Assembly (NCBI GenBank): GCA_965287045.1
Contig: OZ336872.1
Location: forward strand, 29,574,001 to 29,638,000
Source of the DNA: Carcharhinus amblyrhynchos
Lineage: Eukaryota
Direction of reading: 5' to 3'
DNA: 64,000 nt
Shown: one piece after another, positions 3,003 through 31,658 of the stretch
Layout of the letters: the number at the start of each line of letters is the position of its first letter
How positions within the stretch are numbered: position 1 is the stretch's first letter
Made by a program: the position numbers and the translations under genes
The notes under the pieces: generated by a model
Told to the model about the DNA's origin: nothing
The model's database searches: none
What the model saw: the letters and a program-made list of their open reading frames with translations, nothing else

Positions 3003-3717
3003 AAGAACATAAGAAATAGGAGCAGGAGTAGGCCATCTAGCCCTTCGAGCCTGCCCCGCCATTCAATAAGATCATGGCTGATCTGTCGCTGCTCAGTTCC
3101 ACATTCCCGCCCTCTCCCCATAACCCTTAATCCCCTCGCTTATCAAAAACCCATCAACCCGCGTCTTAAAAATATTTAGCGAGGCAGCCTCCACCACTTC
3201 AACGGGCAGAGAATTCCAGAGATTCACCACCCTTTGAGTGAAGAAGTTCTTCCTCAACTCCGTTCTAAACCGTCCCCCCCTTTATCTTGAGGCTGTGCCC
3301 CCTAGTCCTATTATCCTTTCTGAGCGGGAAGAGTCTCTCCACCTCTATCCTATCCATCCCATTCATCATCTTATACGTCTCAATGAGATCTCCCCTCATT
3401 CTTCTAAACTCTAACGAGTACAAGCCTAGTTTATTCAGCCTCTCCTCATAGCTCAACCCCCTCAACTCCGGCATCAGCCTAGTAAACCTCCTCTGCACTC
3501 CCTCCAAGGCCAAAATATCCTTGCGTAAGTACGGCGACCAAAACTGCACACAGTACTCCAGCTGCAGCCTCACCAATGCCCTATACAGCTGCAGCAAGAC
3601 CTCCCTACTTTTATATTCAATCCCCTTCGCTATGAAGGCCAGCATCCCATTCGCCTTCCTGACCACCTGCTGCACCTGCAGGCTGGGTTTTTGCGACTCA
3701 TGCACAAGGACCCCGAG
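3003..3717 (-). mobile_element. Young CR1 subfamily, 3' fragment nested in older CR1
   Basis: ORF 3265-3705 (LYRALVR..LEYCVQFWSP..RRMRGDLIETYK), AAGAACAT tail, GTTCT duplicated at 2998-3002 and 3718-3722. Confidence 0.95.
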
Positions 3718-5059
3718 GTTCTGGTCATCACACTACCAGAAGGAGGTGGAAACTTTGGAGGGAGTTTACAGAAAAGGTTTACCAGGGTGTTGCCTGGTAT
3801 GGAGGTTATTAGCTACAAGGAGAGATTGAATAAACTGGGATTGCTCTCCCTGGAAAGATGGAGGCTTGAGGGGCCACCTGATAAAAGTTTATAAAATTAT
3901 GAGGGGCACAAATAAGGTGAAGAGTTGGAAGCTTTTTTTCCCAGGGCAGAAATGATAATTACAAAGGGGGCATAGTTCAAGATAAGGGGGGAAAGGTTCA
4001 GTAGAGAAGTGCAGGTTGTTGGGGGCCTGGAATGCACTGCCAAGTGAGGTGGTTAAGGCAGACACATTAATGACATTTAACGGGTCTATCTGGATAGACA
4101 CATGAACAGGTGGGGAATCTGGGGATACAGGAGGTTGGTCTAGGTAGGACAGTGTGATCGGCGCAGGCTTGGTGGACCAAACAGCCTGGTCCTGTGCTGT
4201 CCTGGCCTTTTGTTGAAACTGGTGCACCCAGAGGAAACCGATGCAGATACAGGGGAAAAGTACAAACTCTATACAGGCAGTCACCCAAGACTGGAATCAG
4301 ACTCAGGTCCCTGGTACTCTAAGACAGCAGTGATAAACACTGCGCTGCCCATGATTTTAAGCACAAGTTGTGTTCAGCACAAATCTGGTTCCTGCAATTT
4401 TTCTGTGCTAGTTTTAAAAATATTGCACTTGAAACAGGGCCTACCCACAAAACTGGAAACCCCCCAAAGTGAATTACTACTGTTTGGAGTTTCCAGAATT
4501 GTGTTGGTTTGCAATCCTGTGAGGAGGCGCCAAACAATGAACTTGAACTTTTGGATGCAAGAACTCTGTTTTCAACTTTTTAAACATTCTTTAAATAAAC
4601 TTTTGTTTGAATTCACTAAGTAATTCCCTACTGTATCCCAACCTAACAAGAAAATCCTTTATTTTAAGCACTCTTTTCCAGTTATTTAAAATCAAGTTAC
4701 CCACAGATACTGGATTGACACAGATTTAAACTTTTTTTTAAAATGTGATATCCATTTCCAGCTGTTTCAATCAACATTTCCCAAGTCATCACTCTTCACC
4801 GTATCAAAGAATGTTTAACAGAAAATCTTTTTTGAAACAAAAACTCTGATTTTTTTTTAAATTGCCCAACAGGGCCAGTACACGTCAGGTTCAGTGTTTG
4901 GTGGAATCCAAATGAGTCTGAGCAGAAACACAGGGAAAAGAAATGCTTGAAAATAAGCACCATCATGGGTGTGACTTCCACCACAATTGTTGATTCTGCT
5001 CCGAGTGGGAACTCTGCCCATACATATATATCTGAACAATGTAGAGATCCAGTACTTGG

Positions 5060-10745: not shown

Positions 10746-12192
10746 GTCTGCTAAGATATCTAAATTCCGTTGGCAAGCTCAGCAAGTAGCAAATCTTGCA
10801 CAACTGTGGAGAAACTAGCAGTATTTATATAATGAGTAAAACAAGGAGTGAAAAACCTACCACGTGGGATAGACTGAACTACGAGTGAGTCAAAATGATA
10901 AGTCTGTACAACAACTGCACAGATCAGATAAAACCATCAGTAACCCACTTCTTCCTTCACAAAGTTTTTTTTCAATAAAAGGACTAAACACTTTCATTTG
11001 AATTTTCAGGTCCTTGAGTCTAAATTTCCAGATTCAAAGATGAAGACGAGACATGAATGAAGCTTCTGTATTCTCTCGGAAAAGATGTCCAGAATACTCC
11101 CAACTTTACAGCAAGGGCTGCAACTTGAGCATGTGTGAGATACATCTTGCATACAAATTCACACTTGTAGCAATTTTTGTCAGGTTCTGCTCATTTTAAA
11201 GGGATTGAAATAAAAGTGGGCAGTGATTGGCATGAAACGTTCTGGCTGAACAGGGACAGTAGGTAGAGATTGGCACTGAAAGAGTGAGCAGGAAGAATTT
11301 TCCTTAGGGAGAAGACAGTTTTCTTCAGGTGATAAACCAAGGATTGAGCTGAATATCAGACACTTGATACTTTCATAGAAAGCACGCATACAAACCCTTC
11401 ATGGTGCCGCAACAGACTGGTCCTGGTCTCTTTAATTTGTACACCTAACAATAGCTCAAGCAGAGATAATCCGCCAATACTGCATCCGTAATGCATATCT
11501 ATCATCTTCAAATATGTCAAATTACACTCACAATCTGAGAGTTTCCCTAAAAATTGCTGCTCTCTTTTAATTGTCTACAAATTTGAATTGAAATTAACTC
11601 ATGTCTTTTCAAAGGCAAGAGTAGAATTTGATTCCCCCCAATATGAATGCAACATCTGGCAGGAGCTCCACTCACAGAAGCACAAAAACAGCTGCTGGCT
11701 CCCTCCGAGCCTCACTGGCAGCAGGACAGGATTTCCAACAGCACCAGTGCGGTGATGGGAACAGACAAAGATCCTTTCGTGTGGTGTTTTGAGCTTCTCT
11801 ATTTCCTTGGTGTTGCACTGGTCTTGGCACCAATCACTCAAACATGCAGCCCTGGGTTTGCTTCAACTTCAATGATAACTGATCTTACTTCTAGAACTAG
11901 CTCCAGCGCAAAGAATGATCTACTGTGCTGAAGTTTGTTTTGCGTCTGAACACAGTTAAATCAGGATATTAATAAACAAGTGCATCAGGGAGGCCAGAAT
12001 GTACCGTAAACCAGAGCTGTCCCTGTCACAAGGCTCTTCTTTTCACAGATTGTGGCAGCCGAGGTGGACCAAAAGTACACACATTTCACAATTCACTTTT
12101 CAGCTTCAAAGGGCAACTAAATGATTACAAGCTGGATTTAATTGAAGCCATTACTAAACCTGCCTAATGAGGTAATAATGCTCATGACAATT

Positions 12193-12505
12193 CATAGAAT
12201 CCCTACAGTGCAGAAGGAAGCCATTTGGCCCACCGAGTCTGCACCGACAACAATCCCACCCAGGACCTATTCCTGTAACCCCCACATATTTATTCTGCTA
12301 ATCCCCCTATGCTAGGGACAATTTAGCATGGCCAATCAACCTAACCCGCCCACCTTTGGACTGTGGGAGGAAACCGGAGGAAATTCCCACAAACACAGGG
12401 AGAACGTGCAAACTTCATACAGACAGTGACCCAAGGCCGGAATTGAACTTGGATCCCTGGCGCTGTGAGGCAGCAGTGCTAACCATTATGCCAGCGTACT
12501 GCCCC
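12193..12505 (-). mobile_element. HE1/V-type SINE, full length
   Basis: catagaatccctacagtgcag tail through to the tRNA-like head. Confidence 0.9.
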
Positions 12506-12648
12506 ATGCTGCACAATTAGGAAAGAAACCATCATCTTCTCTGCCAAAAGTCAGGCAACAAAATTGTCACATATTCCTTTTAACCAATTTTTCGTGATTG
12601 CCATGGGAAGCTGGGGAATGGTACAATTGCAAATGTTTATAACTTGAG

Positions 12649-12895
12649 TATTGCTGAAAAGAGGGAAACATTGTTGAAACTTCGTCTTGCACACATCAGG
12701 ACAAAAACAAGAATGCAAAATTTCAAACCATCAGATCAATTTACACCAAAGGAGAAATGAGCGTGCCAAGACAATCAGGATTCTTTCCTCTGGTAGTATA
12801 AATTGTTGTGGTTGCCTGAAATTTGACAGTTGTGCATTTGTCCTGATGCGCGCAATATGAGATGCTTCAGCAACATGTCTCTCTTTTCAACAATA
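12649..12895. mobile_element. Palindromic Penelope-like element (family P2) with decayed hammerhead motifs in both arms
   Basis: Arms of ~105 bp are imperfect reverse complements (tattgctgaaaagag / ctcttttcaacaata); each carries TTGTC-CTGATGN..GA..TC. Confidence 0.7.
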
Positions 12896-13240
12896 TGTAA
12901 GTTCTTTCCCCTCTCACTTTAAACCTATGCCCTCTAGTTTTGGACTCCCCCATACTGGGATGGCATGATGGCACAGTGGTTAGCCCTGCTGCCTCACAAC
13001 ACCGGGAACCTGGGTTCAATTCTGGCCTCGGGTCACTTTGTGCGTAGTTTGCACTTTCTCCCCATGTCTGAGAGAGTTTTCTCCGGATGCTCTGGTTTCC
13101 TCCCACAATCCAAAAATGTGCAGCTTAGGTTAATTGGCCATGGTAAATTGCCCCTTACTGACAGGGAGATTAGCAGGGTAAATAAGTGGGAGATAGGGCC
13201 TTGGTGGGATTGTGATGGACCAAATGGCCTCTTTCTGCAC

Positions 13241-13458
13241 AGTAAAAAGTCTGACAACACCAGGTTTTAGTCCAACCTATTTATTTGATAATATACTCAC
13301 AAGCTTTCGAGGGACACCCTCTTCGTCAGGTGACGAAGAGGGTGTCCCTCGAAAGCTTGTGAGTATATTATCAAATAAATAGGTTGGACTAAAACCTGGT
13401 GTTGTCAGGCTTTTTACTGTGTTTACGCCAGTCCAACGCCGGCATACCCACATCAGGT
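13241..13458. mobile_element. Penelope-like terminal-repeat insert (family P1): inverted copy, direct copy and 3' tail, with 12-bp TSD
   Basis: Palindrome 13238-13421 (91-bp arms, one mismatch, 2-nt centre); CTCTTTCTGCAC at 13229-13240 and 13459-13470. Confidence 0.88.
13297..13333 (-). ncRNA. Minimal type-I hammerhead ribozyme motif
   Basis: Minus strand: UCAC CUGACGA A GAGGG-UGU-CCCUC GAAA GC UU GUGA. Stem I UCAC/GUGA, intact CUGANGA and GAAA, 5-bp stem II, self-complementary AGCU in place of stem III, NUH triplet CUU. Confidence 0.75.
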
Positions 13459-14519
13459 CTCTTTCTGCACTACAGGGATTCTTTGATTCTATGAAAAGAC
13501 ATTGGCTATTCACCGTATCTATGCCCCTCATGAATTTATAAACTTCTATAAGATCACCCTCCCCCACCCTGTCTATCTGTAATGACACTTTCAAGGAACT
13601 ACTTACCTGCATCCCTAGGTCTTTCTGTTCGACAACACTCCCAGGGCCCTACCGTTAACTGTGCAAGTCCTGCCCTGGTTTGTCTTCCCAAAATACAAAA
13701 CCTCACTTTTATCTGAGTTCAGCTCCATCTGTCATACCTCCGTCCACTGGGTTCAATAAAGTTCTCCTTCACCCTCATCTCTGTCAACTGTTCTGTAAGA
13801 AGTCAGTCTGTTCAATACATTTATTGTGGATTGATCCATATCGGATGTTCATGTGTATCCACTTCTCACTCTCATCAAGTGCAAGAATCCTAATTTATAT
13901 CTCCCCTCCATTGTCCATGGATGCTGAGACCAACTAATAGCCGATCAAGATAATTCAGAATGGGGTGGAGAAAAATAACTCAAAAATGAATGAAAACATT
14001 TCACTGCATCTGGAATCTGTAAAATGTGTCTTGATTGTGGGTGTCAGCCAGACTCTGACAGCACCAATCTCAAGTCAAGAGATTCTGGCTCAAACTTCAT
14101 TCACGAACATAATTTAGGCCAGTGAAGCCAAAGCTATTGACCATAGGCTCCTCAATCCTTGGCTATATAGCACAGAGCTCAGACAAACTAGAGCTGGTGA
14201 TTCTTATTATCTGATTTGTCCAGTTAGCTGTAGCTTGAAAGACTGGAAAATAAGTATTGTTCTATTACTTTTAGTGCGATGGTCTAATTGGTGGGTAGAT
14301 CCTAAATTGGAACATCAGTGGCCTGTTGGTACCCAATACAGACCAATGAATGGAAGTATGGTCTTAAACTTAATGGATGCCTTTGTGGCTAAACAGTTTA
14401 CTTCAACGCATTCTACATAGAAAATGAATGTGAGTATTATTGTTGGCCAATGCAGTACAGAAGAAAAACTGTATTATATGAAGTACCACATACAATATTC
14501 AACCAAGATCTCACCTACC

Positions 14520-14570
14520 TGTTCCATCGGTTCAGGTGGAGGTTAATACATTATTTCAAAAACAATGTTC
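14520..14570 (-). other. Candidate short exon ending ATG GAA CAG (possible alternative 5' exon)
   Basis: ttttgttcag| acceptor and CAG|GTAGGT donor; stops in all frames before the ATG. Confidence 0.2.
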
Positions 14571-15134
14571 TGAACAAAAGCTTCCCCCGCAACCCAAACC
14601 CACCTCAGTCAACATCACCAATGTTCTGAACCCCATTCCCCCTCCTCAGTCAACATTCTAAAATCAGAATGACTGGTCATTCATTTCATTGTAGGATCTT
14701 GCTGTGTGATCCTGCTAATTCTTGTGGGAGGAGCACTCGAAAGATGTGGTAAAGGCATGTATTTATGTACAATCCCAGTCATACCCAGCCTTTAGGATGA
14801 GAGTGTAGTCATGATACACTTACCCCATTGAAATTCCAACCACTGACTGTGGAAAGCAGGGAGGAGGTGCTACCTTGTAAGGCAGACCTAGGAAACAAAA
14901 AACAAATAAAAAACTTTTACTGTCAGGACCTTTGACAAACATCAGTAACAGATTAAAATCCAATATCAGTCAGGGGTCATCTGTATTTCAATGGCAATTA
15001 GGGATGCTGGCGTTTTCATTGATCCCTACATTTCATGATAGTATTTTAAAAATCCATTATTTCTCCTTCCATTTTGTCCTACACATGACCATGTTAAATT
15101 TCACATGCCCTTGTTCCATGCCTATTAACAACAA

Positions 15135-26343: not shown

Positions 26344-26524
26344 TGATGTGGAGATGCCAGCATTGGACTGGGGTAAGAACAGTAAGAAGTCTCACAACAC
26401 CAGGTAAAAGTCCAACAGGTTTATTTGGTAGCACAAGCTTTCAGACTGTCACTTCTTCTTCAGGTAGCAACACTCCGAAAGCTTATGCTACCAAATAAAT
26501 CTGTTGGATTTTAACCTGGTGTTG
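26344..26524. mobile_element. Penelope-like insert (family P1): minus-strand copy with tail plus inverted partial copy; hammerhead core with decayed stem II
   Basis: Homologous to 13241-13458; imperfect TSD AAAT(A/G)CAACC at 26334-26343 and 26525-26534; minus strand UAC CUGAAGA..GAAA GC UU GUG at 26432-26466. Confidence 0.8.
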
Positions 26525-31458: not shown

Positions 31459-31558
31459 TAATCTCCCCTTGTTGCCAACTCTTCAAAAATTCCAGCAAGT
31501 TACTAAAGAATGATTGTTCCACAAATCAAGGAATCCATGCTGGCTTTCCTTAATTAAC

Positions 31559-31658
31559 AATAAGAAGTCTCACAACACCAGGTTAAAGGCCAACGGGTTT
31601 ATTTGGTAGCACAAGCCACAAGCTTTCAGAGCACAAGCCCCTTCATCAGGTCTCCACA
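31559..31658 (-). mobile_element. Penelope-like insert (family P1) with 14-bp TSD and hammerhead core at 31618-31651
   Basis: TTTCCTTAATTAAC at 31545-31558 and 31659-31672; minus strand AC CUGAUGA A GGGGC-UUGU-GCUCU GAAA GC UU GU. Confidence 0.85.

Follow-up and report, generated by a model that had tools for sequence, protein, structure and literature searches.

The insertions left by EN+ Penelope-like elements (PLEs) have been described, in three papers (PMC8557442, PMC3846280 and PMC11167929), as complex arrangements in which an inverted, 5'-truncated pLTR is accompanied by a tail of 30-40 bp. For the anole element, PMC11167929 reports that both strands are cut and that extension proceeds from two start sites bracketing the tail; for rotifer Penelopes, PMC3846280 favours self-priming on an antisense template. 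As to how PLEs build the inverted arm, PMC11167929 and PMC8557442 both regard further steps as needing validation. PLEs also carry minimal hammerhead ribozymes (min-HHRs), for which PMC4209133 records no cleavage as monomers, low cleavage as dimers, and dual copies 100-700 bp apart on opposite strands, and the anole PLE ribozyme is reported to have cleaved only with protein and to be dispensable for insertion in vitro (PMC11167929). Among PLE clades, Neptune is marked by a linker of the form CX2-5CxxC plus CCHH, which Nematis shares (PMC8557442). Finally, animal non-LTR retrozymes are presented in bioRxiv 10.64898/2026.07.22.740005 as tandems whose units follow one another head-to-tail, every unit having its own hammerhead.

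Against this background we examined a palindromic 218-bp insert in the genome of Carcharhinus amblyrhynchos, lying within a stretch of 64,000 nucleotides (contig OZ336872.1, positions 29,574,001 to 29,638,000), referred to here as the window. The locus is very probably a dead end, left by an autonomous EN+ Penelope-like retrotransposon that is abundant in the genome, has a linker of Neptune type and inserted here with heavy 5' truncation; its family membership, layout, target-site duplication (TSD), linked RT/EN ORF and recurrent junction are demonstrated below, and its features are collected in Table 1.

Table 1. Features of the insert and its target, in window coordinates
Feature	Position	Strand	Remarks
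Host SINE, interrupted near its own 3' end	12951..13492	+	tRNA-type look; paralogs have a single target-site copy
Left target-site copy	13226..13240	+	exact 12-mer 13229-13240; 15-mer with one mismatch
Inverted tail-less pLTR arm	13238..13333	- (sense on minus)	start 5 nt upstream of hammerhead U4
Minimal type-I hammerhead	13297..13333	-	predicted to cleave at 13301/13300; stem II of 5 bp, stem III formed by the palindrome AAGCUU
Head-to-head junction at TCA/TGA microhomology	13326..13333		arms overlap 3 nt
Forward pLTR arm	13331..13421	+	5'-truncated at U4; without C3 and the stem-I 5' strand
PLE 'tail'	13422..13455	+	34 nt, forward arm only
Right target-site copy	13456..13470	+	exact 12-mer 13459-13470

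The core of the insert had been recognised in an earlier interpretation of the letters (hereafter the sequence-only reading) as a palindrome at 13238-13421 with one mismatch and a 2-nt centre, and so it proves to be: the arms, 13238-13328 and 13331-13421, measure 91 nt apiece, disagree only at 13250/13409 and enclose the letters GG. The plus-strand insert has a predicted fold of -167 kcal/mol, and the next best inverted repeats in 12000-15000 are SINE pairs at 76-85%. The inverted truncated terminal copy proposed by the same reading is the tail-less pLTR arm at 13238-13333, and the inverted arms of siblings end within ~10 nt of the same place; its plus-strand mirror copy indeed has G at the C3 position (13330), a loss that is the truncation junction and not a mutation. 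The forward arm bears a derived G at 13409. Since the family sequence ends at 13455, the proposed 12-bp TSD, though present as an exact 12-mer, is better taken as a duplication of 12-15 bp that pairs 13226-13237/40 with 13456-13467/70 and contains one mismatch; its period stays at 230. Of roughly 105 duplicated positions at the locus ~2 differ, one between the arms and possibly one between the TSD copies, which suggests a relatively young insertion with ~1% change per copy.

The stump occupies the innermost level of a three-level nest, in which an older repeat (12861-12950 / 13493-13680), presumably LINE-like, encloses the SINE at 12951-13492, which by name we take to be HE1-like. Freed of the insert, the flanks resemble the 3' part of other copies of the SINE in the window (72-75%), each of which holds the target once, and both TSD copies share one letter absent from the four SINE paralogs compared. 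The joint between 12950 and 13493 was seen in contigs of three public runs. An assembly fold-back artefact is barely credible at such a site, where the SINE split at the TSD is uninterrupted in its paralogs, the tail is one-sided and the arms differ, and where hundreds of like junctions elsewhere have TSDs of their own; contigs of single-copy depth in two samples also extend 2-3 letters into the insert at its left edge, a weak indication. The artefact could appeal to the contigs listed from four public short-read runs, none of which bridges the whole insert, but such contigs break in repeats. An insert-skipping joint is likewise absent from those listed.

Other inverted and PLE-derived sequences occur in the window. 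Two oppositely oriented SINE copies at 12192-12493 (-) and 12950-13500 (+), ~450 nt apart, compose a longer imperfect inverted repeat (76-90% segments) that surrounds and adjoins the insert, and a 43-nt inverted repeat at 12641-12683 / 12861-12903, 74% complementary with 177 nt between its halves, is possibly an old DNA-element remnant. Older PLE-end fragments, at 76-91% to the insert, lie at 26344-26524, 31557-31649 and 2428-2460; the first looks like a second head-to-head pair, its hammerhead at 26463 (-) being decayed, and a further hammerhead core is found at 31649 (-).

The family is abundant. The tail-proximal 27-mer has 9,980 exact matches in the 2.9-Gb genome, a 20-mer common to both arm types has 35,295 and the locus stem-II variant 1,098, with 0 for the reversed-pattern control of each. 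Two siblings, L031 and L032, agree with the forward arm at 124/125 positions and lie next to frames of 631 and 778 aa; Pfam RVT_1 is matched in L032 (E 2.6e-9) and L072, and GIY-YIG in L072, right at the cut-off, with no Pfam GIY-YIG match in the L032 frame. These sibling frames, on which the presence of RT and GIY-YIG was judged, are broken or partial. They carry a C-x4-C-x2-C linker ahead of the GIY-YIG motif, with Cys and His placed, by eye, as for CCHH, and would accordingly be of Neptune type, a clade call made by motif and not by tree. The long sibling L072 comprises an inverted arm, a 5' pLTR whose tail end runs into the ATG of the ORF, ORF pieces and a 3' pLTR with tail. The Penelope-like origin advanced by the sequence-only reading is upheld, siblings with 99% identity to the element end at the locus having RT frames joined to them. 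Among the 30 best siblings a TSD of 10-14 nt stands next to the inverted arm in 20, one has an 18-nt match that includes arm overlap, two have distant 8-mers only and seven have none in the locus. As in EN+ PLEs generally, pLTRs occur in direct and inverted orientation (L072; 56/115 loci paired), the 34-nt tail is at one end only, and the TSD is short.

Several further observations concern these siblings. In L072 (4300-7454) the hammerheads of the 5' and 3' pLTRs differ in stem-II variant, and the inverted arm matches the 3' one. Different stem-II variants stand at apparently the same site of other repeats in L031 (~329) and L070 (~7709), and again in L002 (~1625) and L070 (~3376-3736), one of these pairs in opposite orientation, which suggests recurrent use of target sites by the endonuclease. 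An 868-aa frame resembling, by eye, a protocadherin exon lies ~1.9 kb from a family copy (L033 2291-4894, -), and broken frames resembling LTR-element gag and protease lie upstream of another (L038 145-2625, +).

The single arm mismatch was also traced across the family. At the site equivalent to 13409, the tail-proximal pattern occurs genome-wide with G 100 times and with A 9,980 times (1.0%), and the tail-independent pattern with G 588 times and with A 35,295 times (1.6%). The best siblings covering the site have A in the inverted arm in 21/21 cases and G in the tailed arm, and in four longer loci the inverted arm has 3 A and 1 G. A systematic mismatch between arms, arising from two template regions or from editing, was rejected as a product of ascertainment, the query itself having carried G; with a share of 1.6% regardless of tail, the letter is not specific to tailed arms. 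Compared with a single control A, which gave 27 matches, the site shows the A-to-G change ~4x as often (100 matches), and the change spans stem-II subfamilies.

Read on the minus strand from 13333 to 13297, the insert presents a stem-I strand, the C3-A9 core, an extra A, a 5-bp stem II with 3-nt loop, GAAA, GC, UU and a second stem-I strand. The motif agrees with the earlier claim of a complete set of hammerhead core residues and of the cleavage site: C3-A9, G12-A14, A15.1-U16.1, H17, the extra nucleotide after A9 and G10.1-C11.1 are all in place. Stem I has 4 bp at the locus, cut short by the junction, against 6 bp in its native context. Stem III is palindromic, as had been proposed, and cofolding predicts an intermolecular helix through AAGCUU, compatible with a dimer. 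The Rfam hammerhead models, put forward as a check on the ribozyme, matched nothing at E<=10 in 12500-14500; the scan of that interval returned 16 matches, the best of them miRNA-hairpin models and all below gathering scores, and an RF00163 search of the genome itself gave no match, its controls likewise giving none. The candidate ribozyme is called on motif, predicted fold and covariation, and not on Rfam.

The motif was surveyed in 224 distinct arms, 147 of them parsed over the whole of its length (2 mis-parsed) and 3 more unparsed; the sample was picked in part by core-containing patterns, so that invariance is partly built in. Within these partly core-selected arms (n=147), A13, A14, A15.1 and U16.1 are invariant, G8 has become A in 9 (CpG context), and position 17 (H17) is occupied by U in 125 arms, by A in 21 and by G in one. 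Stem II covaries across 9 recurrent variants, each pairing 3-5 bp, in a comparison that has no shuffle control and shares the same partial core selection. The real signal of selection in the source elements lies in this covariation, together with the alternation of U and A at position 17. As the min-HHR of the family's pLTR, the hammerhead is maintained by selection in those elements and probably acts there as a dimer or aided by protein; the locus copy has it as a passenger.

In the locus copy, the ribozyme is predicted to be fully sequestered in any read-through RNA, much as the sequence-only reading supposed: the pair probabilities of stems I and II fall from 0.86-1.0 in the isolated arm to 0.000 in the read-through fold of 13500-13200. 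Because the arms stand head-to-head, the antisense arm would be transcribed first in either direction and the sense arm captured in the 91-bp duplex. Co-option of the insert by a host transcript, as a regulated ribozyme switch or as an siRNA/ADAR substrate, is highly improbable even though the RNA of either strand is predicted to form a stable duplex of 91 bp and small RNAs from PLE copies are described in rotifers and flies (PMC3846280). The insert is indistinguishable from its neutral siblings, no alternative predicted fold frees the ribozyme, and among 280 unmasked frames of at least 52 aa in the 64-kb window none reaches the Pfam cut-off (5 weak matches; small exons would be missed). Long near-perfect hairpins of this PLE family could matter for dsRNA surveillance, if transcribed.

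How such palindromes arise was approached through 115 loci, comprising 56 head-to-head pairs within a 1.5-kb flank, 14 duplicates, 21 loci without a tailed anchor and 24 without an inverted anchor. The inverted arm is tail-less in 55/56 pairs. Two pairs were dropped for a large gap or a tailed partner, leaving 54 for analysis, a set that mixes four ascertainments and includes the locus itself. Measured upstream from the anchor, their junctions fall at 0 to ~850 nt. An arm overlap of 1-4 nt is seen in 26 pairs and one of 6-10 nt in 3, the overlap is 0 in 4, and inserted letters separate the arms in the remaining 21, figures that have no chance baseline. Junctions in L041, L044, L116 and others hold short duplications of nearby element sequence. 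These duplications resemble the templated insertions of alternative end joining.

The exact 18-nt centre of the locus has 288 copies in the genome. Of the first 30 loci that share it, 14 have a truncated tailed arm and 13 an intact one, the other 3 showing no tail, and a TSD of 8-14 nt is present in 20; in the 27 with a tail there are 13 different stem-II sequences, and both mirror forms occur. The AAGCTT centre has 62 copies, and for one other microhomology centre, counted by eye in 6 of 50 listed junctions out of 1,416 short ones, the estimate is ~170. The notion that the hammerhead core is a unique hotspot for junctions was discarded, since 288 is of the same order as ~170 and 62 elsewhere. 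The locus centre is a recurrent microhomology join and not a lineage, the palindrome being rebuilt at each insertion.

These counts bear directly on the sequence-only reading of the insert as a young, non-coding, ribozyme-bearing mobile unit. Its youth stands; the mobile unit gives way to the 3' stump of an autonomous RT/GIY-YIG element, the centre recurring independently across subfamilies and junction positions varying between copies. That the palindrome might be a non-autonomous unit, retrozyme- or MITE-like and copied in trans, is very unlikely. Its centre is the commonest junction measured, and L073 has the same centre type with the same stem II; yet the palindrome is not a self-copying unit, because that centre recurs in both mirror forms and in combination with many variants of stem II, the counts of other microhomology centres are comparable, tandem units are absent, and the RNA of such a unit would be a duplex without a free ribozyme. 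Classification as a non-LTR retrozyme fails on the single head-to-head pair found where head-to-tail tandems would be expected, and classification as a MITE- or SINE-like independent element on the want of ends, centre and variants shared by descent, with junctions that vary and 13 stem-II sequences.

A regularity among the 54 pairs is that the two arms usually co-terminate. They end within 25 nt of each other in 42/54, against a permutation mean of 13 and a maximum of 23 in 10,000; their endpoints have a Spearman correlation of 0.85 and a median offset of 2 nt, and co-termination extends to long arms (14/21 against 2.9 expected). The tail-less arm is the longer in 28/54, the tailed arm in 22/54, and the two are equal in 4/54. 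A model in which both RTs halt at the same time, with the inverted arm expected ~35 nt further upstream, was rejected, since it fits 1/54 pairs and the median offset is 2 nt. Stem II is identical in both arms of 56/65 scored pairs, with 7 one-letter differences and 2 pairs flagged as different, one of them merely truncated; 21 more pairs were unscorable. The two arms of L036 hold different multi-site stem-II variants, and at two loci besides it the arms are one letter apart, between recurrent variants.

Our favoured account, to which we give somewhat better than even credence, is that two primings make the two arms. At this locus the GIY-YIG endonuclease would make a staggered cut of ~12 bp in the SINE; RT would extend both target 3' ends on element RNA, one from the tail end and one from ~34 nt upstream; both cDNAs would halt at the hammerhead core; and they would be joined through the TCA/TGA microhomology into a head-to-head palindrome with a one-sided tail. 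A possible but less probable route is that the second arm of the same element is made by fold-back, one strand priming itself, with the centre later trimmed or opened. Fold-back would account for co-termination and for the stem II common to both arms, and is in line with the self-priming favoured for rotifer elements. A single fold-back of the tailed cDNA is disfavoured, because in 28 of the 54 pairs it is the tail-less arm that extends further upstream; fold-back is also at odds with the differing variants of L036 and the two one-letter loci, and gives no account of an inverted arm that stops near the second RT start site reported in PMC11167929. Two primings are nonetheless short of proof, since a trimmed palindrome centre would give similar junctions and fold-back also predicts the arm sharing seen in 56/65. 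Some route other than these two is unlikely.

One tentative idea, which we think rather more doubtful than otherwise, is that an RT dimer copies both arms off a single RNA, or off two RNAs that the stem III palindrome of the hammerhead keeps in register in the manner of a retroviral dimer signal. Were it true, the two cDNAs would end at the same template position regardless of length, the thousands of junctions in the genome would document the second-arm step quantitatively, and the min-HHR would serve for dimerisation no less than for cleavage.

Taken alone the locus carries little weight, for it is one among many thousands of neutral PLE stumps. The Carcharhinus amblyrhynchos genome offers thousands of young PLE junctions with diagnostic stem-II variants, and any model of the second arm must meet arm co-termination, variants shared between arms and two mirror forms of the junction. 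A literature search, with most subscription papers and Repbase/Dfam outside its scope, found no paper on the PLE family of the locus or on arm co-termination.

Set beside the described systems, the insert resembles non-LTR retrozymes in being short, non-coding, PLE-derived and furnished with a type-I hammerhead, and is unlike them in consisting of a single head-to-head pair with one complete core. It shares with Neptune clade PLEs the C-x4-C-x2-C linker that its siblings carry before GIY-YIG, a likeness of motif, whereas no microsatellite targeting is seen at the locus site. With the metazoan PLE min-HHRs of PMC4209133 it has in common the full core, the extra nucleotide between 9 and 10.1, G10.1-C11.1, a palindromic 15.2-16.2 and a covarying stem II, and it differs in a stem II of 5 bp, against 7-8 bp in Schistosoma, and in the junction-shortened stem I. 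In the anole element PAc, RT starts 111-118 nt into the ORF, whereas the tail of the present family ends at the ORF's ATG (L072). With the complex insertions of EN+ PLEs the family shares much: a tail-less inverted arm head-to-head with a tailed arm, a 34-nt tail, a short TSD, a palindrome at the junction and, in long siblings, an ORF with RT and C-terminal GIY-YIG. The locus copy departs from them as an extreme stump whose junction falls within the hammerhead core; its layout of inverted tail-less pLTR, tailed pLTR and TSD is already published, and the locus is an ordinary member of that company.
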